A stretch of 64,000 nt of DNA from an uncultured Bacilli bacterium. GTDB taxonomy: Bacteria; Bacillota_I; Bacilli_A; RF39; UBA660. The notes beneath the pieces were generated by a model that was not told where the DNA came from, made no database searches, and saw only the letters and a list, made by a program, of their open reading frames with translations. Below are positions 19,216 through 64,000 of the stretch, piece by piece (position 1 is the first letter of the stretch; every line of letters begins with the position of its first letter). The translations under genes were made by a program, and so were the position numbers. Location of the stretch: positions 34,469-98,468 of the forward strand of contig CAKPFM010000004.1 of the NCBI GenBank assembly GCA_934153945.1. Reading direction: 5' to 3'.

Positions 19216-20292
19216 ATGAAAAGAAAAGGATTTACGCTTGTGGAGTTATTAGCGGTAATAGTAATATTATCGGTAATAGCGTTAATCGCAACACCAATGA
19301 TATTAAACATAATAGAAGAAACCAAAAAAAGAAGCCTCGAAAATAGTGTTAAAGGACTATTAGAAGCATCAAATTATTTTGCAATAGAAAATAATGGAGT
19401 ATATGAATTTATATTTGATGAAACACATAAAGGAACAACAAAACAAGGAGAAAGATTAGATTATAAAGGAGAACTAGATGCAAAAGGAAAACTATATATA
19501 GATGAAGAAGGAGATATAAGTTTATGTGTATATAATGATAAATACTATGCATATAAAAATTATAATAGTGGAGTAATAATAGGAGAAAAAAGTAAAGATA
19601 ATTGTAATATAGATTATGATGGATTAACAAATAAGTATGTAGCTTACTTAGAAAGCGAAGGAATGAGTAGTAATGTATATACGAAAGAAGAAGTAAATGA
19701 ATTAGTTAGTAATTTAACAACAGAAATAAGTAGTTTAAAAAATAAAATTGAAGAATTAGAAAGCAATAATTATGCAACCAAGGAAGAATTAACAAATACA
19801 AGTGATAATTTAACAAATACAATTAATGAAAATAAAGCAAACATTGATAGTGTAAAAAATGGTTTAAATGAATATGCATTAAAAAGTGAATTAAGTAATA
19901 CAAATAATAATTTGATAACTACTAACAGTAATTTAGATGCTTTGACTAGTATTGTTAATAATAATAAATCTAATATAAATAATTTATCTACAAGCATTAA
20001 TAGTATAAAAGCACAAATTGGAACAAATTTTTATTCATTTAGTTATGATACCGGAGTACGTGGTTCAGAAATAACAAATGATATGATTATCAATGCATTA
20101 AAAATGGTTCCAGCCTCTTCAACATTTTTTGTTGTATATTTTAAATGTTTAGAAGGACAAAATGCTTCCTTAATTGGTTATAATTTGGGTAAGGAATATG
20201 GAACAGGATTATACTTTAATTACTATACTTCATCTTTAGTTTATAAATGGAAAAGTGAACTATATAATATAACATTAACTGAAGTTAAATAA
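19216..20292 (+). CDS. Prepilin-type (class III signal) N-terminal domain protein, paralog 1
   Basis: MKRKG|FTLVELLAVIVIL... with G-1/F+1/E+5 and a hydrophobic helix. AAGGAGA RBS. 358 aa, with an Asn-rich coiled region and a C-terminal globular part. Confidence 0.75.
   Translation: MKRKGFTLVELLAVIVILSVIALIATPMILNIIEETKKRSLENSVKGLLEASNYFAIENNGVYEFIFDETHKGTTKQGERLDYKGELDAKGKLYIDEEGDISLCVYNDKYYAYKNYNSGVIIGEKSKDNCNIDYDGLTNKYVAYLESEGMSSNVYTKEEVNELVSNLTTEISSLKNKIEELESNNYATKEELTNTSDNLTNTINENKANIDSVKNGLNEYALKSELSNTNNNLITTNSNLDALTSIVNNNKSNINNLSTSINSIKAQIGTNFYSFSYDTGVRGSEITNDMIINALKMVPASSTFFVVYFKCLEGQNASLIGYNLGKEYGTGLYFNYYTSSLVYKWKSELYNITLTEVK
19250..19319 (+). repeat. 70-nt segment that is near-identical (1 mismatch) to 62488-62557
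   Basis: By direct comparison, the 5' coding region of pilin-like paralogs 1 and 3 is almost the same. Confidence 0.85.
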
Positions 20293-20310
20293 ATCTAATT
20301 ATAATTTATA

Positions 20311-20342
20311 AAAAAATATATTGTTAATTCAATATATTTTTT
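20311..20342. terminator. Bidirectional terminator between the pilin-like gene and clpP
   Basis: A-run, atatattg-ttaatt-caatatat, T-run. Confidence 0.6.
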
Positions 20343-20910
20343 ATAATATTTTATCAATTATTCCATAATTTACTGCTTCATCAGGTTCCATATAATAGTC
20401 TCTTTCTGTATCCTTTTCAACTTGTTTTAAATCCTTTTTTGTATTGATAGACAATATTTTATTTAATTTGTCTTTTAATTTTAAAATCCTTTCGGCAGCA
20501 ATTTTAATTTCAGTAGCTTGACCTTGAACACCACCTAGAGGTTGATGAATCATTATTTCACTATTTTTTAATGAATATCTTTTTCCATTCGTACCACTAC
20601 TAAGTAAAAATGCCGCCATACTTGCTGCCATACCAACACATATAGTAGAAACATCACTTTTAATAAAATTCATTGTATCATAAATGGCCATTCCCGCTGT
20701 AACAGATCCTCCTGGAGAATTAATATAAATACTAATATCATTATTGTTAACTGAATCAAGATATAATAATTCAGCAACTATAGCATTAGAAACTTCATCT
20801 GTAATTTCACCACTTAAAATGATAATTCTATCTTTAAGCAATCTAGAATATATATCATAAACCCTTTCACTATGATTGTTTTTTTCAATAACTGTTGGTA
20901 CTAAATTCAT
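20341..20910 (-). CDS. clpP: ATP-dependent Clp protease proteolytic subunit
   Basis: Ser-His-Asp triad context ([15 protein letters not shown]). 189 aa. Confidence 0.95.
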
Positions 20911-21020
20911 ATTATCACCTCTAATTTTATATTAGTAAAAAAATAAATAAATATTCATTAAAAAATGTGACAAAATACTTAATATTTGATAAAATGGTAT
21001 TAGAGTAAGAGAGGGATAAA

Positions 21021-22682
21021 ATGGCTAGAATTATAAAAATAAATTACAAAGACTTGGAAACAAAAGAATTTGAAGCAGGATTAACATTAAAAGAAATAAG
21101 TAAATCATTCAAAAATCATTTTAATTATCCTATATTGGTAGGAAAAGTAGATAATAATATTGAGGAATTGAATGAAGTAATTAATAGAAGTTGTGATGTA
21201 GAATTTTTTGATAGAAGTACAGGTTTAGGAAATGGTATATATGGTAGAACTCTACAATTCATGATAATAGTAGCAGTTAAGAGATTATATGGAAAAGATA
21301 CTGAAGTTTTAATACATTATTCAATAGATAAAGGATTTTTTTGTGAAGTAATTGGCGTAGAAATAGATAAATCATCAGTAAAAGAAATAGAAAATGAGTT
21401 AAAAAAATTAAATAAAGAAGATTTAATTATAAATAAGGTGAGTGTATCTAGATTTGATGCTATTAAATACTTTAAGAAAAATAAACAAATTGATAAAGTT
21501 AAAGTATTGAAATATATTAGTAATTCTTATATTAATTTATATCGTATAGATAATATATATGATTATTTTTATGGAGAATTAGCTTATTCAACAAGAGATA
21601 TTGATGATTTTGCTTTAACATACATAAGTGGTAATGGTTTTGTAGCAAGTTATCCAGATACATATAACCCAGAATGTACTTTAAGTTATAAACATCATGA
21701 AATGTTGTTTAATACATTCTATGATTATACAAAATGGGGTAGTGAAATAGGAATTAATAATGCAGCTGATTTAAATGAAGTTGTATCTAAGGGTGAATAT
21801 AATAGATTAATTCATGTTGCAGAAACATATTATAATAATCAATTATCTAAAATAGCAGATGAAATATATAATAATAGAAAAAGAATTAAAATTGTTTTAA
21901 TTGCTGGACCTTCATCAAGTGGTAAAACTACAACTAGTAAAAAGTTAGAAATGCATTTACAAAGTAAAGGTATAAAAACTCATCAAATTTCAATAGATGA
22001 TTATTTCTTAGATAGAGATAAAACACCTAAATTAGAAAATGGAGAATTAGATTTAGAATCATTAAATGCTGTTGATGTAACTTTATTTAATAAACATCTA
22101 ACAAAATTATTAGAAGGAGAAAGAGTAGAATTACCAGAATATAATTTTGTTTTAGGGAAAAGGGAATATAAAGGAAAAAATTTATTATTAGGTGATAATG
22201 ATATGATTATTATTGAAGGATTACATGGATTAAATGAAGATTTAACTAGTTCGATAGAAAGAAATAAAAAATATAAAATTTATATAAGTCCATTAACTCA
22301 ATTAAATATAGATAATCATAATCGTATACATACAAGTGATACAAGAAAATTAAGAAGAATTATAAGAGATAATAAATATCGCTCATATTCAGCTAGTGAA
22401 ACATTAAGTATGTGGAAAAATATAAGAGAAGGGGAAGAAAAATATATATTCCCTTATCAAGATGATGCTGATACTATAATAAATTCAGCACTTATATATG
22501 AATTAGGTATTTTAAAAACATATGCAGAACCATTATTATTCTCAGTAGAAGAATCTGATCCAATGTATAGTGAAGCATTAAGATTAATCAATTTCTTAAG
22601 AAACTTCTTACCTATACCTAGTGAAGAAGTGCCATCAGATTCAGTTTTAAGGGAATTTATTGGTGGAAGTTGTTTTAAATAG
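21021..22682 (+). CDS. Uridine kinase-family (PRK/Udk-like) protein with an N-terminal TGS/ThrRS-like domain
   Basis: P-loop LIAGPSSSGKTT in the central domain. The N-terminal MARIIKINYKD... resembles a TGS domain. Confidence 0.5.
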   Translation: MARIIKINYKDLETKEFEAGLTLKEISKSFKNHFNYPILVGKVDNNIEELNEVINRSCDVEFFDRSTGLGNGIYGRTLQFMIIVAVKRLYGKDTEVLIHYSIDKGFFCEVIGVEIDKSSVKEIENELKKLNKEDLIINKVSVSRFDAIKYFKKNKQIDKVKVLKYISNSYINLYRIDNIYDYFYGELAYSTRDIDDFALTYISGNGFVASYPDTYNPECTLSYKHHEMLFNTFYDYTKWGSEIGINNAADLNEVVSKGEYNRLIHVAETYYNNQLSKIADEIYNNRKRIKIVLIAGPSSSGKTTTSKKLEMHLQSKGIKTHQISIDDYFLDRDKTPKLENGELDLESLNAVDVTLFNKHLTKLLEGERVELPEYNFVLGKREYKGKNLLLGDNDMIIIEGLHGLNEDLTSSIERNKKYKIYISPLTQLNIDNHNRIHTSDTRKLRRIIRDNKYRSYSASETLSMWKNIREGEEKYIFPYQDDADTIINSALIYELGILKTYAEPLLFSVEESDPMYSEALRLINFLRNFLPIPSEEVPSDSVLREFIGGSCFK

Positions 22683-22732
22683 TATTAAATTAAAAAAATT
22701 AAACAATATAGTAATTAGAAAAGAGGGATTAT

Positions 22733-23737
22733 ATGATAAAAGTAGCAATTAACGGATTTGGAAGAATTGGTAGATTAGTATTTAGAATTATGGAAGAAGA
22801 TCCTAATTTTGAAGTAGTAGCAATTAATGATTTAACTGATGCAGAACAATTAGCTTATTTATTAAAATATGATACATCACATAGAAGTTATAGAGTAAAT
22901 GAAATATCTAGTGAAGGAAATGAATTAATAGTAGGTTCAAGAAGAATTAAAGTATTTGCTGAAATGGATCCAAAAAATTTACCATGGAAGGGATTAGGTA
23001 TAGACGAAGTATTTGAATGTACTGGTAAATTTACTGATAAAGATAGTGCATATTCACATATAATAGCAGGAGCTAAAAAAGTAATTATTTCAGCACCAGC
23101 TAAAGGTGATTTAAAAACTATAGTTTATAATGTAAATCAAGATACTTTAGATGGGACTGAAGAAATAATAAGTGCCGCTAGTTGTACAACTAATTGTCTA
23201 GCTCCAGTACTAAAAGTATTAAATGATAATTTTGGTATTGAAAAAGGTTACATGACAACAGTTCATGCATATACAAATGATCAATCAGTATTAGATGTAG
23301 CTCATAAAAAAGGAGCAAAATCTCGTCGTGGTAGAGCATCAGCTGCTAACATAGTTCCATCATCTACAGGAGCAGCTACTGCTATTGGAAAAGTAATACC
23401 AGATTTAAATGGTAAATTGAGTGGTAATGCATTAAGAGTTCCAACTACTACAGGTTCTGTAATTGATTTAACTTTAGAATTAAAGAAAAATGTAACTGTA
23501 GAAGAAATAAATAATGCATTTAAAAATAATACAAATGAAACTTTAGGTTATACAGAAGATCCAATTGTATCAAGTGATATTATAGGTTCACATTTAGGAG
23601 CGCTAGTAGATTCTTTATTAACAGAGGTATTAGATGTAGATGGAAAACAATTAGTAAAAGTTGTAGCTTGGTATGATAATGAAATGGGTTATTCAGCACA
23701 AATGGTAAGAACAGCCAAATATTTAGATAATAAATAG
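22733..23737 (+). CDS. gap: Glyceraldehyde-3-phosphate dehydrogenase
   Basis: NGFGRIGR Rossmann motif and active-site SCTTNCLAP. Confidence 0.95.
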
Positions 23738-23742
23738 AAGAG

Positions 23743-23769
23743 TAAGTCTTGAAAAAGACTTATTTTTTT
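23743..23769 (+). terminator. Intrinsic terminator; the 27-nt sequence is identical to 35231-35257
   Basis: taagtctt-gaaa-aagactta followed by T7. Confidence 0.7.
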
Positions 23770-23851
23770 GTTAAAATAAAAGTATAAATAGTAAATGAAA
23801 GATTTATAATGATACTAAATTCATTATTTTTATATTGAAAGGGTGTTAATA

Positions 23852-26800
23852 ATGAAAAGAAATGGATTTACGTTGATAGAATTATTAGCTGTTATAGTAA
23901 TATTATCGGTAATATCATTAATAACGATACCAATTGTAACAGGTGTGATAGATACATCAAGAAGAAATAGTTTTAAAGTAACATGTATGGAAATATATGA
24001 TTCATATGATACCTATGTTGTTGCAAATGATTCAATAGGAAAAAATAATTCAAATATTATATTTGATTTTTCAAGTAAAAGGCAAAATACAGAAATAATA
24101 GGGGATATTAAATATGAACCAGTAAGTAAATTGTATTTAAAAGGTGAATTACCTAATAATGGAAAATATCAAATAAAAAATGATAAAAGAACACTAAAAG
24201 CAGATAATGGAAGATATACATGTGTAATTGATGAAAATAGAAGTGAGATATTAGGTGGAACTGTAGAAGAAAATGATACAACAGCTCCAGTAATAAATGA
24301 TGTAGTAATAACAAGTACAACAAATAGTATAAAAGTAGTAGTGGATGCTATAGAAGAAGATGGAGTGATTGCTAAATATTATTATAAATTTAATGGAGAA
24401 GAAATAGTAAGTGAAAATAATAGTAAAACATACACTAATTTAAAAGCAAATGAAGAGTATGAGATAGAAGTAGTAGTAGAAAATAAAAGTGGATTAAAGA
24501 GTAATAAAGTAGTTAAAAAGATAATGACAAAAAGTGTTTCAAATCCAACAATCAAACAGACAGTGCAAACACCAAGTAGTGGATATAGTTATGCACAATC
24601 AAGAACAATTCAAATTACATATAGTAATACAAATGTAAATAGTCCAGTATATTACTTCAAATCAAGTGTAGGAGCAACAGTAGCTAGTGGAGTAGTAACA
24701 GCATCATGTGGAACAGGAACAAATCCAGGAACATGTACAAGTTCAAGTGTAACAACAATAGTAGCTAATACATGGTATAAAACAACAAGTACAACACCAA
24801 GTGTAATATATAAAGCAAATGGAACATTGTATGCGTTAACAAGTGATGGAGCAAATATATCAGGAACAAGTACATTTACAATAAGTAAGATAGATACAAG
24901 TGCCCCAAGTGCAAGCATGAGTGTAGGAAGTATCAAAACAGATAGAGCAACAATAACAGCGACATGTAGTGATGCACAGTCAGGAATAACAAAATATGAA
25001 TATAGTAAAGATAATGGAACAACATGGATAACAAATGGAACAACAAATAGTTATACATTTACAGGCTTAACAAAAGAAACAAGTTATAAATACAAAATAA
25101 GATGTACGAATGGAAGTGGCTTGACAAAAGAAGCAAGTAGTACAAGTAGTACATTAGGATTTACAAATCCAACAATAAAACAAACGAGTCAAACACCAAC
25201 AAGTGGAACATGGGCAACAAGTAGAACAATTCAAATTACATATAGTAATACGAATGTAACAAGTCCAGTATATTACTTCAAATCAAGTGTAGGAGCAACA
25301 GTAGCTAGTGGAGTAGTAACAGCTGCGTGTGGAACAGGAACAAATCCAGGAACATGTACAAGTTCAAATATAACAACATTAGTAGCTAATACATGGTATA
25401 AAACAACAAGTACAACACCAAGTGTAACATATAAAGCAAATGGAACATTGTATGCGTTAACAAGTGATGGAGCAAATATATCAGGAACAAGTACATTTAC
25501 AATAAGTAAGATAGATACAAGTGCCCCAAGTGCAAGCATGAGTGTAGGAAGTATCAAAACAGATAGAGCAACAATAACAGCGACATGTAGTGATGCACAG
25601 TCAGGAATAACAAAATATGAATATAGTAAAGATAATGGAACAACATGGATATCAAATGGAACAACAAATAGTTATACATTTACAGGCTTAACAAAAGAAA
25701 CAAGTTATCAATACAAAATAAGATGTACAAACGGAAGTGGCTTAACAAAAGAAGCAAGTAGTACAAGTAGTACATTAGGATTTACAAATCCAACAATAAA
25801 ACAAACGAGTCAAACACCAAGTAGTGGAACATGGGCAACAAGTAGAACAATTCAAATTACATATAGTAATACAAATGTAAATAGTCCAGTATATTACTTC
25901 AAATCAAGTGTAGGAGCAACAGTAGCTAGTGGAGTAGTAACAGCTGCGTGTGGAACAGGAACAAATCCAGGAACATGTACAAGTTCAAATATAACAACAT
26001 TAGTAGCTAATACATGGTATAAAACAACAAGTACAACACCAAGTGTAATATATAGAGCAAATGGAACATTGTATGCATTAACAAGTGATGGAAAGAATAT
26101 ATCAGGAACAAGTACATTTACAATAAGTAAGATAGATACAAGTGCCCCATCAATATATGCATATTCTGGAACAATGTTATATCAGGATCCATATTTCACT
26201 TTGGGAACTAATAGTACTAGTATTTATAATAATTTAGGAAATGGAACAGTAACAATTACTAGAAAAGAAATGTCAGGAACATATTATGGATATGGAATTG
26301 AAATATCAACAACAGGAACAGCAAGTCCAGGACATGGTGGTTTCACTTTCTATACAGTATCAGCTGCCAATAAGGAACTTATTACAATAATAAATGCGAA
26401 AATACCAGTAGGATATCAAATAAACTGGGCTTCAAATGAAGTAGGTAATGGTGGAGTATTTGAATGGTTAACCAGTCAAGCAGGAACCGGAAATTGGCAA
26501 ACATATATATTTAGATTAAAATGCGGTTCAAGTGGAACATTTGCAACAACAAATTTCTTCTATTTAACAGGTGGATCAACAGCAACAACATCTTCCCCAG
26601 TAACATGGCAAGTCCAATTAGCAACAACAATAGATACAACAAAATATGGAGCAAGTAATTTTATAGTATTTGCAGGAAAAGATACAGAAAGCGGAGTAGC
26701 AGCATTTGGGGTAAATCAAAGTAGTACTACAGAACCATCATGGACAGCAACAAATGTTGGATGGTGGGCAGGTGGATATACATCAAATAGAACATATTAT

Positions 26801-28105
26801 GTATGGATAAAGGATGCACTAGATAATGTAAGTAAAGTACCTGTGACATTAAGTTATATAGATAATGTAACAACTCCAACAGTAACATACAATGGAGGAA
26901 GTAATAGTCATAGTTGGAAGAACAACTATAATATAACATTAACATCAACAGCTACAAGTGGAATACATCATTATGAAGTAGATTGGGATGGAGATGGAAT
27001 AGCAAATCAAACTATAACTAGTAATTTTATACCATGGGATGGATATTCATCATGTAATAATAGATTTAGAGCAGTAAGTAATAATGGTGTAGAAAGCGCT
27101 TGGACAAGTTCTCATGATATCCACATGGATACAAGCGCACCAGGAGCAACAACAATAACGTATAATGGTGGAGCAAATACATGTATATGGAAAAATAACT
27201 ATAATTTGACATTAACGTCAACGGATAATGTAGGAGTTTCATATTATCAAATAGATACAAATAATGATGGAGTGGCAGATACAACAGTAGGAAGTAGTTT
27301 TATTCCAACAAATGGATGGAGTACATGTACTGCAAGATTTAGAGCAGTAGATGGTGCTGGAAATGTTGGACCATGGACAGAAAAGCAACATATCCACATG
27401 GATACAGAAAAACCAGTACATACAAATTGGTGGTGGGGAGAAGTTACTAAAGATGTGGCAAGATTATATGTTCAAGCAACAGATAATGTAGGATTACCAG
27501 CTAATGCAACAACATACGATGGACATAATGCAGGAGTGTACTGTCCAACCTCAACACAAAGTGGCGGATATACAAACTTTGTATGGTTTAAAGGAAATTG
27601 GGACGCGAGTGCAAATGCATATAGATGTGATATAACGCCAAGTACTTTTGGACACTATGGACAAACATATAGAACACATTTATACATATATGATTATGTA
27701 GGAAATGGTGGATACTATAATGCAACATCAGTAAATATACCAACACCTAGTTATGCAGCAACAAATTCAAGTTATGCGGCAACTCCTAATACAACAACTT
27801 ATCCAACACAACCTACTGGAGAAACATATCGTTGTTGTTGGCATATAAGTAGTGCTAATGCATCAAAGAGTCAATGTGCTAGTGATACTATTGTAGATTA
27901 TGAAGATGGAAGTGGAAGATGGGAATGCGATCAATGTAGTACCTGTCCTAGAAAAGCATGTACAAATGGAGGAACGCAAAATGGTGATATTTGTACAAAG
28001 ACTGAATATACATGTCCAAATGGAGGAACTTTAAGTGGAACGACATGTGTCTTATATACATGTCCAAATGGAGGAACCTTAAGTGGAACAACATGTGTCA
28101 AATAA
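23852..28105 (+). CDS. Giant prepilin-type N-terminal domain protein, paralog 2, with FN3-like and tandem repeat modules and a Cys-rich C-terminus
   Basis: ATG at 23852 after an AAGGGTG RBS. MKRNG|FTLIELLAVIVIL. About 1417 aa, very rich in Thr/Ser/Gly/Asn. Confidence 0.8.
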   Translation: MKRNGFTLIELLAVIVILSVISLITIPIVTGVIDTSRRNSFKVTCMEIYDSYDTYVVANDSIGKNNSNIIFDFSSKRQNTEIIGDIKYEPVSKLYLKGELPNNGKYQIKNDKRTLKADNGRYTCVIDENRSEILGGTVEENDTTAPVINDVVITSTTNSIKVVVDAIEEDGVIAKYYYKFNGEEIVSENNSKTYTNLKANEEYEIEVVVENKSGLKSNKVVKKIMTKSVSNPTIKQTVQTPSSGYSYAQSRTIQITYSNTNVNSPVYYFKSSVGATVASGVVTASCGTGTNPGTCTSSSVTTIVANTWYKTTSTTPSVIYKANGTLYALTSDGANISGTSTFTISKIDTSAPSASMSVGSIKTDRATITATCSDAQSGITKYEYSKDNGTTWITNGTTNSYTFTGLTKETSYKYKIRCTNGSGLTKEASSTSSTLGFTNPTIKQTSQTPTSGTWATSRTIQITYSNTNVTSPVYYFKSSVGATVASGVVTAACGTGTNPGTCTSSNITTLVANTWYKTTSTTPSVTYKANGTLYALTSDGANISGTSTFTISKIDTSAPSASMSVGSIKTDRATITATCSDAQSGITKYEYSKDNGTTWISNGTTNSYTFTGLTKETSYQYKIRCTNGSGLTKEASSTSSTLGFTNPTIKQTSQTPSSGTWATSRTIQITYSNTNVNSPVYYFKSSVGATVASGVVTAACGTGTNPGTCTSSNITTLVANTWYKTTSTTPSVIYRANGTLYALTSDGKNISGTSTFTISKIDTSAPSIYAYSGTMLYQDPYFTLGTNSTSIYNNLGNGTVTITRKEMSGTYYGYGIEISTTGTASPGHGGFTFYTVSAANKELITIINAKIPVGYQINWASNEVGNGGVFEWLTSQAGTGNWQTYIFRLKCGSSGTFATTNFFYLTGGSTATTSSPVTWQVQLATTIDTTKYGASNFIVFAGKDTESGVAAFGVNQSSTTEPSWTATNVGWWAGGYTSNRTYYVWIKDALDNVSKVPVTLSYIDNVTTPTVTYNGGSNSHSWKNNYNITLTSTATSGIHHYEVDWDGDGIANQTITSNFIPWDGYSSCNNRFRAVSNNGVESAWTSSHDIHMDTSAPGATTITYNGGANTCIWKNNYNLTLTSTDNVGVSYYQIDTNNDGVADTTVGSSFIPTNGWSTCTARFRAVDGAGNVGPWTEKQHIHMDTEKPVHTNWWWGEVTKDVARLYVQATDNVGLPANATTYDGHNAGVYCPTSTQSGGYTNFVWFKGNWDASANAYRCDITPSTFGHYGQTYRTHLYIYDYVGNGGYYNATSVNIPTPSYAATNSSYAATPNTTTYPTQPTGETYRCCWHISSANASKSQCASDTIVDYEDGSGRWECDQCSTCPRKACTNGGTQNGDICTKTEYTCPNGGTLSGTTCVLYTCPNGGTLSGTTCVK
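24542..26150 (+). repeat. About 2.6 tandem copies of a 621/624-bp near-identical unit inside the CDS
   Basis: Copies start at 24542, 25166 and 25787. The antisense ORFs 24652-24936 and 25273-25557 translate almost identically. Confidence 0.85.
26868..27410 (+). repeat. Two divergent copies of a roughly 270-bp module
   Basis: Repeated TYNGG.N..W.NNYN.TLTST...RFRAV...HMDT pattern. Confidence 0.5.
28004..28096 (+). repeat. Two 45-48-nt direct repeats encoding YTCPNGGTLSGTTCV
   Basis: At the extreme C-terminus; a degenerate third copy lies upstream. Confidence 0.8.
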
Positions 28106-28126
28106 AAATAAAGAAAGGAAAAAAAT

Positions 28127-28534
28127 ATGAAAAGAACAATAAAAACATTATTAATAGGAATATTCACAATCAGTTTAATAACTGGTTGTGGATGTAGTAA
28201 AAAAGAGGAAGAACCAAAAGAAGAAATAAAAGCAAATACAAATGAAGAAGTAATAAAAGATCAAAAAGTAGAAGAATTTGAGCTAAAAAATACATCTTTA
28301 ATATATGAAGATGGAAATACAACATTAGAAACAACAGTAACAAATACATCAGAAAAAGATACATACTTAAAAGAATTTGATATCCAAGTATTAGATAAAG
28401 ATGGAAATGAAGTGGTAGTATTAAAAGGATTTGTTGGAGAACAAATGAAAGCAGGAGAATCAAGAGTAATAAATAGTTACTATAATGAAGATTTAAGTAC
28501 TGCTACTAAAATAGTTTATACAGTTATAAGATAA
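28127..28534 (+). CDS. Small lipoprotein, probably cotranscribed with the giant pilin-like gene
   Basis: 22-bp gap after the pilin-like gene. Lipobox LITGC. Confidence 0.6.
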   Translation: MKRTIKTLLIGIFTISLITGCGCSKKEEEPKEEIKANTNEEVIKDQKVEEFELKNTSLIYEDGNTTLETTVTNTSEKDTYLKEFDIQVLDKDGNEVVVLKGFVGEQMKAGESRVINSYYNEDLSTATKIVYTVIR

Positions 28535-51767: not shown

Positions 51768-51838
51768 ATATATCAATTTTGTAAAAAAATATCGAAATAA
51801 GTAAAAAAGTATTTTAATATATATTAAGAGTACTAGAG

Positions 51839-51960
51839 GATAGAATGACATCGTCTATCGCGGATGAAAGTCTTAAGGGTAGGGTTTTAAACCTGATGAG
51901 ATGTTGGAAGTGATGCCCAACCTTTTACTCATATGAACCTGTATACAGGTTCTTTATTTT
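51839..51960 (+). ncRNA. Candidate small structured RNA or leader-peptide transcript ending in an intrinsic terminator
   Basis: Stem gataga-N9-tctatc, hairpin ggttt-taa-aacc, and terminator gaacctgta/tacaggttc followed by a U-run (51935-51960). Alternatively a 22-codon ORF from 51845 with an AGAGGA RBS. Confidence 0.25.
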
Positions 51961-54907: not shown

Positions 54908-54915
54908 GTGGTATC

Positions 54916-56703: not shown

Positions 56704-56741
56704 AAGTGTTTTTGTGTTATAATAGTATAGAGGTGTATAAA

Positions 56742-58571
56742 ATGTTTAACATGTATTTTCAATTTTTTGGATTATTAGATATTATTTTACTTACAATTGT
56801 ATATTTTACAAAGACTACTTTTAAAAGTGAGGAAAATAAAATATATGGGTGGTTAATAATAACAAGTTTTATAGGTCAAATATTGCATATTTTGAGTTAT
56901 ATAACAATTTATAATATGGAATATATTCCATTAATTAATATTATTGTAACAAAATCATATTTGATATACTTAGTGGTATGGATATCATTACTTTTTGTTT
57001 ATATATGTATAGTTACATATAAATATTCAAATCAAAAAGGAATTAAAAAGAAAATAAGAAAAATTAGTTTATATACATTTCTAATAGATGTAATAGTATT
57101 AATACTATTATTAATGTTACCAACATATTGTTTTTGTGATGGTAGTGTGGTATATACATATGGTGCAAGTGTAAATTTAATTTATTTAATATCAATTATG
57201 TATATTACTATATCATTATTAATGTTTATAACTCATTTTAAATTAATAGTTAATGCTGGATTAAAAAAATATATTCCACTTTTTGCATTTGTTTTAATAG
57301 GTAGTGTAGTTATGGTTATTCAATATACTAATCCAAGTTTATTATTAATAACATCTTGTGAAACTTTTATAACATTTTTGATGTATTTTACAATAGAAAA
57401 TCCAGATTTACAAATGCTAAAAGAATTTCATAAAGCAAGAAAATTTGCTGATGAAATAAATAATGAAAAAACAGAATTTTTATTTAATATGTCAAATGAA
57501 ATAAAAAATCCAATAAAAAATATTAATTTATTAAGTAAAGATATATTATCTAGTAATGAAAATACAAAAAAAGATGCATTAGAAATAAGTAGATTATCAT
57601 CACACTTAATTCAAATTGTCAACAATATTCTTGACATAACAGATTTAGAAGCTAGAAAAATAGTTATTCAAGGAACAAAATATAATGTTTCAAATTTGTT
57701 TCAAAGTATTAATAAACAATTTGAATCAAAATTGAATGAAGAAATTAAATATAATTTTAAATATGATAATAGTATACCAGAATATTTATATGGTGATTCT
57801 ATACGTATAAAGCAAGTTATGAATATTTTATTAGATAATGCTAAAACGTATACTAAAAATGGTTTTATTGATGTAAATATTAATTCTATAATTAAGCATG
57901 ATATTTGCCGATTAATAATAACAGTAGAAGATTCTGGTATAGGTATGACATTAGAAGAACAAGCTCATCTATTTGATAAACAAAAAATATATAGTGATGA
58001 GACACTAAAAATAATTGATGACAATCAAAATAATTTAGGAATAGCTAAATCATTAATTAATTTAATGAATGGAAGTATTATGGTAAATAGTGAATATGGA
58101 AAAGGAACTACATTTACTGTTGTATTAGATCAAAAGGTAACAAAAGAAGAAAAATCAAAACAAATAGAAGTTGTAGAAAAATATGAAGAGGTATATGTTA
58201 ATAATGATAAATTACTACTTGTTATTAATGATGCTGATTTAAGTAAAAAGGTTAATAAGCTTTTAAAAAAATATTCTATTGATATTGTAGAGGTAAAAGG
58301 TGGACAAGCCTGCTTAGAAAGATTAAGAAATAAGGAAAAATATAATTCAATTATTATTGAAGAGGAGTTAGAAAAATTAAGTTGTGAGGATACTTTAAAT
58401 AAAATAAAAGATACTCCAGGATATAAAATACCAGTAATAATAATGACTAAAAATAAAGAATTTGGATCAAAAGAAAAATATTTAGATAAAGGATTTAAAG
58501 ATGTAATATATTTGCCAATAAAAAAGGAAGATTTTATAAAAACTTTAGATAAGTATATAGAATTAAATTAA
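56742..58571 (+). CDS. Hybrid sensor histidine kinase-like protein with substituted phospho-sites (probable pseudokinase)
   Basis: ATG at 56742 after an AGAGGTG RBS. Six-TM sensor domain. H-box reads FNMSNEIKNPI, with AAT (Asn) at 57495-57497 where His is expected. N-box and G1 are present. The C-terminal REC-like domain has ...NSIIIEEE... where the phospho-Asp is expected. Confidence 0.6.
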   Translation: MFNMYFQFFGLLDIILLTIVYFTKTTFKSEENKIYGWLIITSFIGQILHILSYITIYNMEYIPLINIIVTKSYLIYLVVWISLLFVYICIVTYKYSNQKGIKKKIRKISLYTFLIDVIVLILLLMLPTYCFCDGSVVYTYGASVNLIYLISIMYITISLLMFITHFKLIVNAGLKKYIPLFAFVLIGSVVMVIQYTNPSLLLITSCETFITFLMYFTIENPDLQMLKEFHKARKFADEINNEKTEFLFNMSNEIKNPIKNINLLSKDILSSNENTKKDALEISRLSSHLIQIVNNILDITDLEARKIVIQGTKYNVSNLFQSINKQFESKLNEEIKYNFKYDNSIPEYLYGDSIRIKQVMNILLDNAKTYTKNGFIDVNINSIIKHDICRLIITVEDSGIGMTLEEQAHLFDKQKIYSDETLKIIDDNQNNLGIAKSLINLMNGSIMVNSEYGKGTTFTVVLDQKVTKEEKSKQIEVVEKYEEVYVNNDKLLLVINDADLSKKVNKLLKKYSIDIVEVKGGQACLERLRNKEKYNSIIIEEELEKLSCEDTLNKIKDTPGYKIPVIIMTKNKEFGSKEKYLDKGFKDVIYLPIKKEDFIKTLDKYIELN

Positions 58572-58671
58572 AAATACTTTAAAAAGGTATTTTTAATTTT
58601 ATCTTTAATTTAGATTGACAAAATAAACTAAAAATGTTAACATATACGCTACGTTAAGAGGGGATTTATAC

Positions 58672-59889
58672 ATGAATATAAATGAATTAATAGAAATATT
58701 ATACGAGTATATAATGGAAAAAAAGATAATTCAGGCAAAAGAATTAATTAAATATATGGTAAAAAATAATGTATGTGAAAAACTAACCATTTTAGAAAAA
58801 GTAAGAAATTATAGTAGAGAGAAACTTTCTTCAATAGATGATATAAAAAAGTTTGATTTAAATTATATGATTTTGATAAATTACAAATTAAGAGAAGTTT
58901 CCTATATTATTGAAAGATATATAAAGTTTGGAAGTTTAAAGATAAACCAACAAAATTATTTATTACTAATCAACTTCAAAAACTATGGTAAAGATTTTAC
59001 AGAATTAAAATTAGTAGTAGATGAAATATTAGAAAAGTTTAAAGATGATTTAAGTTTTTTACTTATTAATGAACAAATTATGAGAAGTACATATGAAGAA
59101 GAATTTAAACAATTATTGAAATCTAAAAATCCAGTAGAATTATTTAGAAAATTTAATTGGGACGATAAAAATTTCTATTTCAAATTATCATTATTTAGAA
59201 AAAAATATTATTGTAAAAAAGATCAAGAATATGCAGATTATTTAGAAAAAAAATATCAAGAATATTTAAAATTGTATAAATTTAATAATAATAGCTCAAG
59301 TTCAACTAATAATTATTTTCCATTGGAAGCAATAAAAGATTTATTTGCTAGTGGTTGTTCAATATATGAATATTGTGATAGACATCTTGAATATAATGTT
59401 TCAGACTTGGTAAAAACTATCAAAGCAACTTGTGGAGAAAAAGCTAAATCAGTTTTACAAAATTTACAAAATTTAGAGTCTCAAGAATTTAAACAAAAAT
59501 TAAATAATTTATTATTTCAAATTATTAATGATCCAGAATTTACAATTCTAGATTATTATTCGATAACAAAATTAAGTATAAATGATTTTAAAGCAAAGGT
59601 TGAATGTCATAATATTAATTTTTGTGAATTTATAACACATAACAGTGAGAAAAATTTCAATTATAGTAAAAAATCTTATTCACGTTTTAATAAAGAACAA
59701 GAAATGAAAATAAAAAGAATTATACATGGAATAGAAATTACAGAAGAAGATAAAATTAATATATTTAATTATTTAGAAAGTAATGAAGTACCGGTAAATA
59801 AATTTACTTATAGAGCCTGTATAAATAAATTAATAAATGGTACTTTAGATTTTAAACAAAAAAATAAATATTTAAAAGGTTCATTTTAG
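58672..59889 (+). CDS. Hypothetical protein
   Basis: 405 aa. Has its own promoter (TTGACA at 58613). No recognisable motifs. Confidence 0.5.
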   Translation: MNINELIEILYEYIMEKKIIQAKELIKYMVKNNVCEKLTILEKVRNYSREKLSSIDDIKKFDLNYMILINYKLREVSYIIERYIKFGSLKINQQNYLLLINFKNYGKDFTELKLVVDEILEKFKDDLSFLLINEQIMRSTYEEEFKQLLKSKNPVELFRKFNWDDKNFYFKLSLFRKKYYCKKDQEYADYLEKKYQEYLKLYKFNNNSSSSTNNYFPLEAIKDLFASGCSIYEYCDRHLEYNVSDLVKTIKATCGEKAKSVLQNLQNLESQEFKQKLNNLLFQIINDPEFTILDYYSITKLSINDFKAKVECHNINFCEFITHNSEKNFNYSKKSYSRFNKEQEMKIKRIIHGIEITEEDKINIFNYLESNEVPVNKFTYRACINKLINGTLDFKQKNKYLKGSF

Positions 59890-59900
59890 AACCTTTTTTT
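59876..59900 (+). terminator. Intrinsic terminator
   Basis: aaggttc-atttta-gaacctt followed by T7. Confidence 0.65.
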
Positions 59901-59926
59901 GATATAATGTTATTAGGTGATTAAAA

Positions 59927-60172
59927 ATGGATATAGCAGAAATTGTTAATGATATGGATTTAGTATTAGAAGGAATACCGTTTAGTAGTGACAATAAAAA
60001 TATTCAAAAGGGATTATCTATTTTAGAACACAATGTTCCAAATTTTGAATATTCAAAAAATAATTTAAATCTTTTACAAAAAATAGAAGAAATAAAAAAC
60101 TATTACTATAGTTTAGGATATAATAATAGTTCAATTTTAGAGATTTTATCAATTGGACAAAAAGTAAGATGA
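59927..60172 (+). CDS. Small hypothetical protein
   Basis: 81 aa. Its stop overlaps the hemW start. Confidence 0.3.
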   Translation: MDIAEIVNDMDLVLEGIPFSSDNKNIQKGLSILEHNVPNFEYSKNNLNLLQKIEEIKNYYYSLGYNNSSILEILSIGQKVR

Positions 60173-61248
60173 AATCAGTATATATACATATACCTTTTTG
60201 TAATACAATATGTAGTTATTGTGATTTTCCTAAGGTATATAGTAATGTATGTAATAAAGATTTATATTTAGATTCTTTAAAAAAAGAAATTCAAAATAAT
60301 TATAAAAATGAAATAATAAATACAATATATATAGGTGGAGGAACACCTAGTATATTATCAATTAAAGAATTAGAAAAATTACTAGAAATAACTAATTTAT
60401 TAAAAAAAAATGATAATATAGAATTTACTATAGAATGTAATGTAGAATCAATAGATGAAGAAAAATTAAAATTATTAAAAAAATATAATGTAAATAGAAT
60501 TAGTATTGGTATAGAATCATTTGATAAGAAAATAATCTCTTATTTAAATAGATTTCATACTAAAAAAGAAGCTATAAAAAAAATAAAATTAGTAAAAAAG
60601 TATTTTGATAATATAAATATTGATTTGATGTATGCTGTACCTAATCAGAGTATAAAATCATTAAAAAAAGATATAAATACATATCTTAAATTGAAAATAC
60701 CACATATATCATATTATTCATTAATAATAGAACCTCATACTAAACTATATAATGAAAATACTAATTATATTGATGAAGATATAGATTATAAAATGTATAA
60801 AATAATAACCCAAAAATTAAAAAAATATCATCATTATGAAATAAGTAATTTTTCATTTAGAGGTTATGAATCTAAACATAATTTAGTTTATTGGAACAAT
60901 GAAGAATATTATGGTTTTGGTGTAGGTGCTAGTGGATATATAAATGGTATTAGATATAATAATACAAAGAATATTCATAAATATATGAGTGGTAATTATA
61001 AATTAGAAGAAACTAAACTAACTGAATTAGAAAAAATGCAAGAAGAAATGTTTTTAGGACTTAGAAAATTAGATGGTGTTAATATAGAAAATTTTGAAAA
61101 AAAATATCATAAAAAAATAGAAGAAGTTTTTGATATTAATGATTTGTTAGAAAAAAATATTTTAGTAAAAAAAGATGGATATATATTTATAAATAAAGAT
61201 AATATATATACATCAAATGATATTATGATTAGATTTGTAGGTGATTAG
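60169..61248 (+). CDS. hemW: Radical SAM heme chaperone HemW (HemN-like)
   Basis: CxxxCxxC radical-SAM motif (FCNTICSYCDF). 359 aa. Confidence 0.85.
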   Translation: MKSVYIHIPFCNTICSYCDFPKVYSNVCNKDLYLDSLKKEIQNNYKNEIINTIYIGGGTPSILSIKELEKLLEITNLLKKNDNIEFTIECNVESIDEEKLKLLKKYNVNRISIGIESFDKKIISYLNRFHTKKEAIKKIKLVKKYFDNINIDLMYAVPNQSIKSLKKDINTYLKLKIPHISYYSLIIEPHTKLYNENTNYIDEDIDYKMYKIITQKLKKYHHYEISNFSFRGYESKHNLVYWNNEEYYGFGVGASGYINGIRYNNTKNIHKYMSGNYKLEETKLTELEKMQEEMFLGLRKLDGVNIENFEKKYHKKIEEVFDINDLLEKNILVKKDGYIFINKDNIYTSNDIMIRFVGD

Positions 61249-61824
61249 ATGGATAAAGTATCAAAATTTGAAACAGAAATTAATTATATTAAAAATAAAA
61301 AATATCAAGATAATTTAAAGATATTAATAAATTTATTACCAGATTATTTCTTTAGTGTACAAGCATCTTCTACTGGTAAATATCATCCAGCTTTTACATT
61401 AGGTGAAGGCGGTTTAGTAAGACATACAAAAGCTGTAGTTAGAATTGCTTATGAATTATATAATGATGAATCAATTACAGGATGTTTTAATCAAGATGAA
61501 AAGGATTTAATGATAGTTGCTTTAGTTTTACATGATGGATTAAAACATGGGTTAGAAAAATCAGAATATGTAGTATTTGAACATCCACTTATTATGGGTG
61601 AATATATAAAAAATAATAAAGATAAATTAACATTAACTGATAATGAAATAGAATTTTTAGTCAATGTAATATCATCACATATGGGACCTTGGACTAAGGA
61701 TTATAAAGGAAATGAAGTATTACCAAAACCTGTAAACAAATACCAGAAATTTGTACATATGTGTGATTATTTAGCAAGTCGTAAGTTTTTAAATATTAAT
61801 TTTGAAAATGATGAGATAGTTTAG
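61249..61824 (+). CDS. HD-domain phosphohydrolase
   Basis: H...HD...H...D metal-binding pattern (VLHDGLKH). Confidence 0.65.
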   Translation: MDKVSKFETEINYIKNKKYQDNLKILINLLPDYFFSVQASSTGKYHPAFTLGEGGLVRHTKAVVRIAYELYNDESITGCFNQDEKDLMIVALVLHDGLKHGLEKSEYVVFEHPLIMGEYIKNNKDKLTLTDNEIEFLVNVISSHMGPWTKDYKGNEVLPKPVNKYQKFVHMCDYLASRKFLNINFENDEIV

Positions 61825-61855
61825 AAGAAATTATAAAGCGATTTCTTCTTTTTTT
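61823..61855 (+). terminator. Intrinsic terminator
   Basis: agaagaaat-N9-atttcttct followed by T6. Overlaps the 3' end of the convergent XRE gene. Confidence 0.55.
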
Positions 61856-62289
61856 CTACATATATCATTAATTGAAATGTTAAAATGTTTACAAAAAATG
61901 TATAGTACTGGTATTGAAATCATAATTTTACCTTTTTCATATTTATTAATACATGCTTGTGTTACACCAATTAGTTTTGCCATTTCTTCTTGTGATAAAT
62001 GATTTGAAATCCTGACATTTCTAATATTATTTCCTAATTCTTTTAGATCAATATTTCCAATACTATCTTTATTATCCTTACAATTTGATATATTTAAAAT
62101 GTAATCTATATTTATATTAAAATAATCCGAAAATTTACATAATGGCTTTAGTGGAATAATATTAATTCCGAGTTCCCACAAAGAGTACGTAGAACGACTA
62201 ACTTCCAAAATATTAGCCATTTGTTGTTGTGTTAAATCATGATCTTCTCTTATTTCTTTTATTTTTTTAAAATTTAACATCAATATCAC
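61831..62289 (-). CDS. XRE-family transcriptional regulator with two HTH domains
   Basis: Two HTH_XRE repeats: LTQQQMANILEVSRSTY and LSQEEMAKLIGVTQACI. Confidence 0.8.
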   Translation of the reverse strand: MILMLNFKKIKEIREDHDLTQQQMANILEVSRSTYSLWELGINIIPLKPLCKFSDYFNINIDYILNISNCKDNKDSIGNIDLKELGNNIRNVRISNHLSQEEMAKLIGVTQACINKYEKGKIMISIPVLYIFCKHFNISINDICRKKEEIAL

Positions 62290-62393
62290 CTATAATAATT
62301 GTTACACTTTAGATACAAAAAAAATGAAAATTGCTATTATGAGTTATAAAAAATACTATTTTGTGTTATAATTGAGATACAGTAGAGAATAGA

Positions 62394-62430
62394 TTATGTA
62401 TTTTAATAATTTTTCATTTAAAATACATAA
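62394..62430. promoter_or_regulatory. 13-bp perfect inverted repeat with an 11-nt spacer; candidate operator
   Basis: ttatgtattttaa-taatttttcat-ttaaaatacataa, located 24 nt upstream of the pilin-like gene RBS. Confidence 0.45.
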
Positions 62431-62453
62431 TAAGAGTAGTGAGGAGTTTTAAT

Positions 62454-64000
62454 ATGAAAAGAAAAGGATTTACGTTGATTGAACTACTAGCGGTAATAGT
62501 AATATTATCGGTAATAGCGTTAATCACAACACCAATGATATTAAACATAATAGAAGAGACAAGAAAGAAAGCATCAATAGAAAGTGTAAACGGAATATTA
62601 GATGCAGCAGAGAAATATGAAATAACAAGCATGTTAGAAGGAGAAGAAACAAGAAGGTTTGAGTTTCCAAATGAGAAATTACAATATAAAGGAACAAAAC
62701 CAGAAAGTGGAACACTAATAATAGATGAAGAAGGAAATACAAGTATAACAGTATTAATAAATGGATACTGTGTAAGAAAGAGATTTAATGAAACAACACC
62801 AAGTGTAATAGAAGAAAAAAATTGTACAATAGAAGATAGTGAATTAATATATGCAGAAAGATATAAAGAAGAAATATTAAATGGAGCATATCCAGAAATA
62901 AAGAATGAATTAATACCAGTAACAATAGAAAGTAATGGAACAGTAACATATGCAGATATAAGAAAAGAATGGTATAGTTATAAAAATAAGATATGGGCAA
63001 ATGCCGTAATATTAAAAGATAATGTAACACATAGTGTAGGAGAGGTAATACCAGAAAGTGATATAAAACAATATTATGTATGGATACCAAGATATAAATA
63101 TGAATTATGGAATGTAAATGGAGAAAATAAATATCCAAATGGAACAAGTTCAGAAAGTGCGATAAATATAGTATTTGAAAGTAAAGATAAAGAAACAAGT
63201 AATGGAACTGAAAATGGAGAATGGTTAACACATCCAGCGTTTACATCATTTAATACGAATGGAATATGGGTAGGAAAATATGAAACAAGTTATGATGAAG
63301 AAACATATACAGATTCAAGTAAGTTTCTAACTACAAATCCAAATTATGCAGCAGCTACAAATGCTTCAAATATAATAATAAAACCAAATGTAAGAAGTTT
63401 AACAAACAAAAAAGTAAGTGAATTTTATACATTAGGAAGAGGAATAAATGAAGGATTAAACTCACATATGATGAAAAATAGTGAATGGGGAGCAGTATCA
63501 TATTTAACATATTCATTATTCGGAAAATGTACAGAAACAGGATGTGAAGAAGTATATCTAAATAATATCAATACAGGGTATTTAAATAGTACAGCAACAT
63601 TTACAGGACAGTGGCAATATAGCGGAAGTATAACAGGATGTAGTGCATCAAGTACTTCGGCAACTGTAAATAGTAATCAATCATCATGTTCAAGTGGCTA
63701 TGCATATAATGAAGCAAATAATAAAGCAAGTACAACAGGAAACATAAGTGGAATCTATGATATGAGTGGAGGAAACTGGGAATATGTAATGGGAGTAATA
63801 AAAGATGCATCAGGTAATCCAATGAGTGGAATAAATAGTACATACAATTCAGGATTTAATGGAACATATGGATGTCCAACATGTAATAGTGATACATCAG
63901 GATTAACAAGTTTAACAACAGGAATAAATTTTCCAACAGATACAAGATATTATGATTTATATGCACCAAACTCAACAGAGTTAGGTGATGATACATGGTA
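62454..64000 (+). CDS. Prepilin-type N-terminal domain protein, paralog 3; runs off the 3' end of the window
   Basis: MKRKG|FTLIELLAVIVIL. GAGGAG RBS. More than 515 aa. Internal motifs WLTHPAF, GIWVGKYE, EWGAVSYL, GIYDMSGGNWEY. Confidence 0.75.
   Translation, partial: MKRKGFTLIELLAVIVILSVIALITTPMILNIIEETRKKASIESVNGILDAAEKYEITSMLEGEETRRFEFPNEKLQYKGTKPESGTLIIDEEGNTSITVLINGYCVRKRFNETTPSVIEEKNCTIEDSELIYAERYKEEILNGAYPEIKNELIPVTIESNGTVTYADIRKEWYSYKNKIWANAVILKDNVTHSVGEVIPESDIKQYYVWIPRYKYELWNVNGENKYPNGTSSESAINIVFESKDKETSNGTENGEWLTHPAFTSFNTNGIWVGKYETSYDEETYTDSSKFLTTNPNYAAATNASNIIIKPNVRSLTNKKVSEFYTLGRGINEGLNSHMMKNSEWGAVSYLTYSLFGKCTETGCEEVYLNNINTGYLNSTATFTGQWQYSGSITGCSASSTSATVNSNQSSCSSGYAYNEANNKASTTGNISGIYDMSGGNWEYVMGVIKDASGNPMSGINSTYNSGFNGTYGCPTCNSDTSGLTSLTTGINFPTDTRYYDLYAPNSTELGDDTW

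Follow-up and report, generated by a model that had tools for sequence, protein, structure and literature searches.

Dispersed modular type IV pilins of an uncultured gut Bacilli bacterium: one subfamily probably carries lectin heads diversified by a retroelement

Modular pilins, in which a pilin module is joined to a further effector module, have been catalogued by Raynaud et al. 2021 (PMC8179133), who list over 1,200 proteins in 264 architectures, FN3 and lectin modules included. In Streptococcus sanguinis PilB carries a vWA module and PilC a lectin module; tip display and adhesion have been shown for the modular pilins of this species, including a direct adhesive role of PilB (PMC8179133). 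A different type of pilus is found in the gut commensal Bacteroides, where the tip adhesins of type V pili are diversified by diversity-generating retroelements (DGRs; bioRxiv 2024.11.15.621889). The literatures on type IV filaments and on DGRs are both rich and barely touch each other: two large DGR surveys leave pilins unmentioned in their main texts, a GspG-type pilin domain figures in a 2024 survey as one of the rare target domains, with no analysis, and the modular-pilin work is not among the literature mentioning both subjects. Here we describe a stretch of 64,000 nucleotides (nt) from an uncultured Bacilli bacterium (GCA_934153945.1, contig CAKPFM010000004.1, positions 34,469 to 98,468), in the following called the window, which holds three genes with prepilin signals, P1, P2 and P3. 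Taken as a whole they are probably best explained as part of a dispersed family of modular type IV pilins, the P3 subfamily of which are DGR targets. The genes are arranged as follows:

19216-20292, + strand: P1, 358 amino acids (aa); class III signal and pilin-like module at about residues 1-125
23852-28105, + strand: P2, 1417 aa; class III signal, pilin module, FN3-like domains and 207-aa repeats
62454-62861, + strand: pilin part of P3; class III signal and pilin module, residues 1-136
62862-64000, + strand: effector part of P3; residues 137-515 of 596, with a linker domain and the greater part of a C-type-lectin/FGE-fold domain

The preliminary description of this DNA had assigned prepilin signals to three open reading frames (ORFs), and the profile searches agree: their scores of 26.8-31.7 bits for PF07963 (N_methyl; curated cut-off 21.2) and of 28.9-31.8 bits for TIGR02532 (curated cut-off 16.3) lie above the threshold in every case. 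The starts of P1, P2 and P3 (MKRKG/FTLVE, MKRNG/FTLIE and MKRKG/FTLIE) each consist of a basic leader ending in Gly, with Phe at +1 and Glu at +5, and continue with about 20 hydrophobic residues. In a six-frame scan, sites of the form G[F..][TS][L..]xE occur exactly three times in the window, each time opening one of the three genes. The full P3 comprises 596 aa, as seen from an identical protein (P0002, 515/515) and from near-identical contigs; the end of the window truncates it at residue 515. The first 130 residues or so can be aligned as one module in P1, P2, P3 and P5, a paralog outside the window. A PDB sequence search with this front end returned pilins only, the closest solved-structure match being PilE1 of S. 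sanguinis. Behind the module the proteins continue with a coiled coil and head (P1), FN3-like domains (P2) or a C-type-lectin-fold module (P3). No similarity is detectable among these C-terminal regions, which had rightly been called completely different, and Pfam and NCBIfam searches with P1-P3 gave the N-terminal motif, coiled-coil noise, a sub-threshold fn3 match and nothing else. By their architecture P1-P3 are predicted to be modular type IV pilins of a known kind, in which a pilin module is combined with unrelated effector modules.

The window has a G+C content of 24.8% and contains core Firmicute genes (PolC, ArgS, EzrA, ClpP, GAPDH, a GyrA/ParC-type topoisomerase subunit, HrcA-GrpE-DnaK-DnaJ, PBP1, RecU, the spore coat protein GerQ and a ClpB-like ATPase). 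Contigs from human-gut metagenomes (Hadza and other) are 99.2-99.8% identical to it. By its peptidoglycan and sporulation genes the host is a walled spore-former, its relatives put it among the Bacilli, and it is presumably a monoderm. As in the modular pilins of S. sanguinis, a class III signal and small pilin module are followed by a short linker and a bulky effector in a monoderm. Unlike their streptococcal counterparts, the genes described here stand singly among housekeeping genes and not in a pil operon, number at least 8-10 per genome and are known from sequence alone; several possess a portable poly-G 5' cassette, and one subfamily appears to be hypermutated by a retroelement.

The scattering among housekeeping genes agrees with what had been described earlier; the count of three does not, since the family amounts to at least 8-10 prepilin genes in this species. 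P4 (598 aa) is a tandem paralog directly past P3, beyond the end of the window. It is present in two strains (L001, L002) and missing in a third (L003), which is otherwise 99.2% identical over a 12.75-kb overlap, and thus constitutes a gene-content polymorphism within the family. P5, a P2-like paralog of 968 aa, is located about 7 kb beyond the window end, and a sixth gene, P6 (569 aa), was found on a 119-kb contig that also carries P4 and P5. A second contig of the same sample and of similar coverage contributes P0019, a paralog of 795 aa, and a prepilin of 375 aa. A GGDEF gene and a HIGH-nucleotidyltransferase gene enclose a further P3-like gene together with a small pilin of 133 aa (hereafter the GGDEF locus). 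An Abi_2 (abortive-infection-like) gene is situated between the PPDK gene and P5 (L001:18042-19034). In a metagenome-assembled genome of a Hadza gut Bacilli we noticed five prepilin genes in tandem, coding for about 688 aa each (L046:1945-12730), so that large prepilins have expanded elsewhere in this group as well.

We determined the likely nature of the P3 head from a structural model (predicted local distance difference test score 76, predicted template modelling score 0.73). The pilin fold is present in it as a long N-terminal helix lying on an antiparallel beta-sheet. Among the structural matches of the model were:

Rank 1, score 16.3: TaqVP (5vf4), a DGR variable protein of Thermus aquaticus
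Rank 2, score 9.3: PvdO, FGE-like fold
Rank 3, score 8.8: TvpA, a DGR variable protein
Rank 6, score 8.2: SUMF2, an FGE paralogue
Rank 7, score 7.8: Mtd, a DGR variable protein of a phage tail

Apart from the pilins, the PDB sequence search had one weak match, to 5vf4 (E 0.16), which proved to be meaningful. Going by the model, the P3 head has a predicted C-type-lectin fold, the mutable scaffold of DGRs. An FGE-sulfatase likeness had been suggested for P3 on account of its GIYDMSGGNWEY motif, which indeed resembles the FGE signature. At the level of the fold, common to FGE and C-type lectins, this likeness can be maintained. At the level of the family it cannot: the module behind the pilin part of P3 has no Pfam match, full-length P3 none to PF03781 at E values up to 1, and the PF03781 scores of its relatives (18 bits) stay below the cut-off of 23.3. 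An FGE-sulfatase enzyme was accordingly rejected as the identity of P3, which, in contrast to FGE, would be displayed at the surface and carry a DGR variable region.

The lectin module belongs to a large family, with more than 7,700 matches in one search and about 2,900 representatives at 50% identity. In P3 its variable region comprises residues 545-596 approximately, just past the end of the window, which stops 30 codons short of it. When the last 52 or so residues of 108 members were compared, hypervariable positions were found scattered over a fixed scaffold, W[YF]xDYAxFPTxTxPWxxRGGxFxxGxGAGVxxFxRxxGxAxSxxxFRVVLAY. Members of the P3 subfamily possess a C-type-lectin-fold domain with variable residues at the C-terminus, as DGR targets do.

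The module is found in several settings. Copies 72-87% identical occur with a Laminin_G_3 insert, behind another pilin module plus Big_2, or behind non-pilin N-termini resembling signal anchors; whole effector modules appear to have been exchanged between carriers. Among the non-pilin carriers (P0051, P0055, P0073 and others) one group shows a hydrophobic stretch followed by a (G/T)(T/S)(S/T)(Y/F)A(Y/L)(W/F)-like motif, which we take to resemble SipW/TasA-type signals. Another group starts with KGFAIS, a prepilin-like leader without Glu5. It includes lectin proteins 63% identical to P3 (L094, L097, L103, L107, at about 11538-11915, and similar ones), whose tail is identical across many contigs and whose gene is immediately followed on its 3' side by a small prepilin gene of 122-153 aa in a split arrangement.

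The evidence for a retroelement comes from template repeats (TRs) located next to genes of this subfamily. P0021 and P3 (query: the L001 copy) have 87% identity and share both pilin module and 5' untranslated region. On its contig, L174, a TR (ANFPTMTNPWVNRGGNFNNGTGAGVLNFNRNNGHANSNDAFRVV) begins 171 nt past the P0021 stop, and the contig ends within it. This TR differs from the adjacent variable region (VR) at 14 positions, all 14 of which are adenines in the TR (33 A among 134 nt; hypergeometric P 2e-10). A complete cassette is present in a relative of 26.7% GC (L136), consisting of target, TR, a MutS_I-like ORF, bAvd (E 8e-22) and a reverse transcriptase (RT; RVT_1). The target, a prepilin with lectin module of 518 aa, scores above the N_methyl threshold, matches P3 over residues 1-595 and is 35% identical to it in the best segment; its 141-nt VR is followed 264 nt downstream by the TR, and 13 of 13 mismatches are at adenines. 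The same order of elements is repeated in three further relatives (L171, L172, L183), RVT_1 and bAvd being present in all four, and in a 100-nt window of L171 we counted 17 mismatches at A sites and 0 at other sites.

The pattern of amino acid variation agrees with this. Over 15 distinct species-level tails, columns whose TR codon contains an A show 6.6 different residues compared to 2.0 in A-free columns (P 9e-8), and every AAY column holds 7-10 distinct residues. The A content is 14-21% within variable regions and 45-48% in the remainder of each gene. A direct comparison is possible for two strains at the GGDEF locus: the flanks are 98-100% identical, and the two 100-nt windows over the VR are 69-72% identical. 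From these sequence patterns the main engine of variability in the P3 subfamily would be adenine-directed mutagenic retrohoming confined to the C-terminal 45-50 residues. The earlier proposal of either pilus-tip adhesin modules or a recombinationally variable surface-protein family is thus upheld in outline as regards modular-pilin architecture and a variable surface family, and is not supported as regards recombination being the main engine.

Compared to the described DGR targets TaqVP (5vf4), TvpA (2y3c) and Mtd (1yu0), the system has in common the C-terminal VR, an AAY-rich TR, adenine-only mismatches and, in the relatives, bAvd and RT. It differs in the carrier, which here is a type IV pilin module; Mtd belongs to a phage tail-fibre context, and TvpA is carried by a lipoprotein signal. 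It also differs in the many dispersed paralogous targets, some of them apparently retired, and in a separate MutS_I-like ORF between TR and avd. With the type V pilus tips of Bacteroides it shares the idea of a retroelement rewriting the lectin-fold head of a pilus-tip subunit. The two kinds of pilus are unrelated: those of type V are assembled by strand exchange in diderm Bacteroidota, and their DGR targets lie at the ends of pilus operons, unlike the present genes, which code for type IV pilins and belong to a relative of Bacilli that has a wall and forms spores.

A free-standing MutS_I ORF of 119-146 aa lies between TR and bAvd in every DGR cassette we found in these gut Bacilli (L136:11902-12342, L171:1343-1702, L172:300-659, L183:895-1263). 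In the work of Wu et al. 2018 a MutS_I motif was confined to three RTs, which it extended at the C-terminus. A free-standing mismatch-recognition domain within a cassette for mutagenic retrohoming may be worth a look.

The following course of events would account for these data. Each gene would combine a constant front end, i.e. the class III signal and the pilin module of about 130 residues, with an interchangeable effector. In P1 the latter would be a small head on a stalk formed by a coiled coil, in P2 FN3-like repeats plus a Cys-rich tail, and in P3 a head of C-type-lectin fold. Several front ends would be preceded by a shared promoter region with a poly-G tract, and the shared front end would have spread by duplication and gene conversion. 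In the lectin subfamily the TR would be transcribed and then reverse-transcribed with errors at adenines only, and the mutated copy would replace the last 45-50 codons of the gene, so that the lectin head acquires an altered ligand-binding face. Prepilin peptidase would cleave the proteins, which would be presented on a type IV filament, probably at its tip, by machinery encoded elsewhere. The window's own P3 would be an old target that is no longer diversified.

Several observations weigh against this explanation. Some of them concern the retroelement. L174 would belong to the window's species by its 87% protein identity, identical 5' cassette, GC content and sample type, an attribution by resemblance. 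We scored the remote paralogs against the L174 TR, which offers 33 A sites and 101 non-A sites, using the Fisher test:

P0007: 16 A-site and 10 non-A mismatches, P 7e-6
P0019: 17 A-site and 12 non-A mismatches, P 8e-6
P0017: 17 A-site and 21 non-A mismatches, P 1e-3
P4: 14 A-site and 16 non-A mismatches, P 2e-3
P3: 21 A-site and 31 non-A mismatches, P 8e-4
P6: 17 A-site and 39 non-A mismatches, P 0.14

Changes at A sites are enriched in the remote paralogs, yet these also show 10-21 non-A mismatches. Because they differ from the L174 TR at non-A sites, their template may be a strain variant of this TR or a second TR copy. P3 of the window fails the adenine-only test, and its tail hardly varies over four strains, being the same in P0001-P0003 and differing by at most 2 residues in P0004. 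In P4 and P6 the tail does not differ between strains. Since the tails of P3, P4 and P6 are near-invariant between strains and show many non-A differences, we read the three as retired DGR targets; P3 may alternatively be served by an unseen TR. With the L174 contig breaking off within the TR, RT and Avd of the window's species escaped detection. Within the window neither a DGR-type RT nor Avd was found, a BLAST search that compared the variable regions to the window and loci L001-L088 gave no TR, a later scan of the module genes yielded an adjacent TR in L136, L171 and L174 only, and regular-expression scans detected no RT motif in the loci of the window's species. The RT P0156 was rejected as the enzyme of this species, as it belongs to another one with 29% GC.

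The remaining points concern the filament. It had been stated that pilus machinery is lacking in the window, and a Pfam scan of its approximately 50 ORFs indeed gave no T2SSE, T2SSF or Peptidase_A24. About 140 kb of additional DNA of the species yielded no PilB, PilC or PilD by Pfam labels of called genes and motif scans, regular-expression scans gave no GspE-type ATPase or A24 motif in the loci of this species, and no assembly genes occur within 10 kb of the paralog loci. Filament display is therefore argued from relatives only. Besides, the lectin module is commoner on non-pilin anchors: among 147 complete representatives 41 start with a class III motif and 106 do not, so that the pilin front end is not required for the function of the module.

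These points lend some weight to a rival explanation, in which the class III signal does no more than export and anchor the proteins, and these reside at the cell surface by means of the N-terminal helix, or in a short pseudopilus-like assembly, never in a long pilus. None of the approximately 10 family members has machinery beside it, the lectin module sits equally on ordinary signal-anchor-like N-termini, and proteins of 600-1400 aa are bulky for filament subunits. Non-pilin surface proteins with class III signals are moreover documented in archaea: the sugar-binding proteins of the Sulfolobus bindosome (PMC3047682) are large, functionally unrelated surface proteins with a prepilin-type signal, encoded away from the assembly genes, a situation resembling ours. 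They differ in being archaeal, in having the signal without a full pilin module and in showing no hypervariation. On the other hand, the pili of S. sanguinis do incorporate large modular pilins (PMC8179133), and in one relative (L115) PilC, PilD, a small pilin and a T2SSE ATPase are encoded directly beside a lectin-module gene. Other relatives point the same way. L018 contains PilC, PilD and a small pilin; in L104 a P3 homologue (69% identical) has a T2SSE ATPase at a distance of 8 kb and a small pilin within 9 kb; another relative carries a T2SSE ATPase on the same 90.7-kb contig as a 77%-identical P3 homologue; and L175 also has machinery. In these relatives the parts of the type 4 filament are loosely clustered among housekeeping genes. 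Because relatives encode such parts, the machinery is likely to be located elsewhere in this genome too. We consider it unlikely that the signal is a mere anchor and prefer display on a type IV filament.

Linkage of an RT or PilB could be established for relatives only (P0199 with P0039, P0216 with P0072, P0302 with P0029). A PilB flanked by three small prepilins (P0303) was found on contigs of 22.7% GC from similar samples; it was set aside as a gene of the window's species, no tie to the latter being established.

Far less probable is that the lectin-head proteins are receptor-binding proteins of prophages, as are most gut DGR targets, and not parts of cellular pili. Most gut DGRs are phage-encoded, and cellular variable proteins of Bacillota often resemble phage receptor-binding proteins (bioRxiv 2024.11.15.621889). 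Against this, all loci are flanked by housekeeping or sporulation genes (HemN-like, PPDK, NusA/IF2, enolase, SpoIID, Obg), phage structural genes were not seen at the loci, the VR/TR pattern gave 0 matches in 2.9 million viral contigs, and the N-termini are pilin modules.

We also assessed the similarity between the 5' ends of the genes. As described before, a 70-nt block of P1 (19250-19319) recurs in P3 (62488-62557) with 1 mismatch, and the first 21 nt of both genes are identical. This exceeds what the protein requires: at sites with the same residue 21/23 codons are identical compared to 12.9 expected from the codon usage of the window, and under this null the probability that all those 21 codons match is about 1e-6. 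The block was found to be part of a longer cassette:

19216-19320, + strand: coding part of the cassette (leader peptide and hydrophobic alpha1-N helix); identical nt are 96/105 in P3, 98/105 in P4 and 102/105 in P0019
19024-19215, + strand: non-coding part upstream of P1, with upstream homology at P4, the GGDEF locus and P0019; its 5' end overlaps a terminator-like element

For the GGDEF-locus gene the first 105 coding nt of one strain's copy fall within 98-102/105 identities to P1, those of the other strain's copy amount to 92/105. Upstream, positions -166 to -1 of P1 are matched by P4 at 140/165, by the GGDEF-locus gene (L173) at 133/166 and by P0019 at 106/148 (72%), and megablast aligned window positions 19024-19368 with the P4 region (L001:13004-13375) at 81% over 378 nt. 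P3 and P6 have a different upstream sequence, which is common to both. Since the homology runs on into non-coding DNA, duplication or recombination of the 5' block is indicated. The 70 nt are the core of a cassette of 270-345 nt which is made up of promoter region, leader and alpha1-N and would have spread between loci by copying or conversion. Recombination of the 5' ends had been proposed for the 70 nt; the process can be retained, the length of the block being far greater. As an engine of variability the shuffling of 5' ends finds no support, the 5' block being a constant carrier cassette and not the variable part; in the P3 subfamily that role falls to the C-terminal region and the DGR.

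Purifying selection on alpha1-N combined with AT codon bias, with no conversion or recombination, would be another cause of the 70-nt identity. Codon bias alone predicts 20.5/34 (about 60%) identical codons at identical residues, and the amino acids of the alpha1-N helix are nearly the same even in distant species. This is nevertheless a very improbable explanation: the excess of identical codons contradicts it, P2 and P5 of the same genome diverge in the stretch of the 70-nt block at both synonymous and non-synonymous sites, in most other species the same-residue codon match is 27-62% (71-75% at two loci), and non-coding homology extends over at least 166 nt between P1, P4, the GGDEF-locus gene and P0019. 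By the codon counts and the upstream homology we ruled out codon bias as the sole cause. An artefact of assembly from collapsed repeats, for which one could cite contig breaks within these genes, the poly-G tract or the TR (L004-L006, L087, L174), is next to impossible, because SPAdes and MEGAHIT assemblies made independently from different samples contain the P1, P3 and P4 5' sequences (99.2-99.98% identical to the window) and reproduce the fixed substitutions between paralogs.

Mosaic patterns were also seen further downstream: P3 and P4 are 100% identical over nt 133-490 and 90-95% beyond, and P2 and P5 share an island of 92-98% within a background of 60-70%. Both are consistent with gene conversion. 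At the upstream boundary of the cassette, window positions 19024-19074 hold an AT-rich hairpin of 40-50 nt with a T-run (GATACTTGAAAAAAGTATCTTTTTTT), located after the small ORF 18683-19021. It recurs at 90-95% identity past the stops of P3 and P6 (L001:12997-13056; L088:11711-11773) and is probably a shared terminator travelling with the cassette boundary.

Within the non-coding part of the cassette two elements can be distinguished:

19156-19165, + strand: G10 poly-G tract, a candidate slipped-strand phase-variation switch
19170-19199, + strand: promoter-like site TTTACT-18-TAAAAT directly 3' of the poly-G, matching the consensus at 9/12 and weak taken alone

In the contigs of the species that we scanned, every G/C run of at least 7 lies 50-60 nt upstream of a prepilin gene, and no such run occurs at any other position. 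P1, P4, the GGDEF-locus gene and P0019 have upstream tracts between G7 and G10, and at one and the same locus their length varies between strains, P4 having G7 or G9 and the GGDEF locus G8 or G10. Length polymorphism of a homopolymer in a promoter or 5' region is the standard signature of slipped-strand phase variation. The tract may accordingly switch expression, as its sequence suggests, and its length is probably a second layer of variability. Upstream of P0021 an insertion sequence (rve-family transposase and a 93-aa ORF; L174:8741-9864) directly precedes the gene and takes the place of the poly-G-containing part of the shared upstream cassette.

A broader picture can tentatively be drawn. 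In low-GC, small-genome gut Bacilli pilin modules could serve as a universal carrier, and DGR, poly-G and recombination could be layered to give a programmable type IV pilus tip, a possibility to which we give less than even weight. A single chromosomal DGR (target, TR, MutS_I-like ORF, Avd and RT) would then serve several dispersed pilin paralogs, the poly-G in the shared promoter cassette would turn individual paralogs on and off, and recombination at the front end and at the YKEEILNGA junction would swap whole effector modules. The components, i.e. modular pilins, C-type-lectin DGR targets and homopolymer switches, are known; their combination is in practice new and barely mentioned in the literature searched, where we found no type IV pilus tip described that a retroelement would render programmable. 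Should the lectin heads be borne on type IV filaments, they would be the counterpart, in gut relatives of Firmicutes, of the DGR-diversified type V tips of Bacteroides. It would also account for a continuing adaptation, in reduced and uncultured Bacilli, of attachment specificity to host glycans, partner microbes or phage pressure. The family offers comparisons of active with retired targets and of several N-terminal carriers for one hypervariable module, and thereby makes the rules of remote-target recognition and carrier choice testable, which should be of solid interest to specialists for pili and DGRs.

P1 and P2 differ from the lectin subfamily in that comparison of alleles revealed no hypervariable segment in either of them, the alleles being conserved apart from indels. 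In P1 an Asn-rich coiled coil at about residues 157-270 is followed by a small C-terminal alpha/beta domain. The single-sequence AlphaFold2 model of P1 was of low confidence and too poor for a fold search, and only its secondary structure was used. The coiled coil gave a weak match to the NadA stalk (6eup, E 5e-4), and P1 alleles differ solely by two indels of 7 aa and 45 aa. P2 reaches 23.9 bits with fn3, just under the Pfam threshold of 25, and contains beyond its 207-aa repeats more beta-rich domains and a Cys-rich tail. The 621-bp repeats and the Cys-rich tail had been pointed out previously, and we could delimit them:

24600-26140, + strand: 621-bp unit within P2, about 2.5 tandem copies of 93-100% identity

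In addition, a 48-nt unit is duplicated in the Cys-rich tail (28006-28099). P2 and P5 are 60-70% identical in the pilin module and 92-98% in one repeat segment. Judged by their architecture, P1 and P2 may act as adhesins.

Two small ORFs in their vicinity, 18683-19021 (112 aa, upstream of P1) and 28127-28534 (135 aa, downstream of P2), show weak, sub-threshold matches to DUF5640/DUF5643. A skipping-rope RNA (RF02924) was detected on the + strand at 51829-51929, between the PTAC gene and the ClpB-like gene, with an Rfam score of 39.3 bits against a gathering threshold of 36.7.

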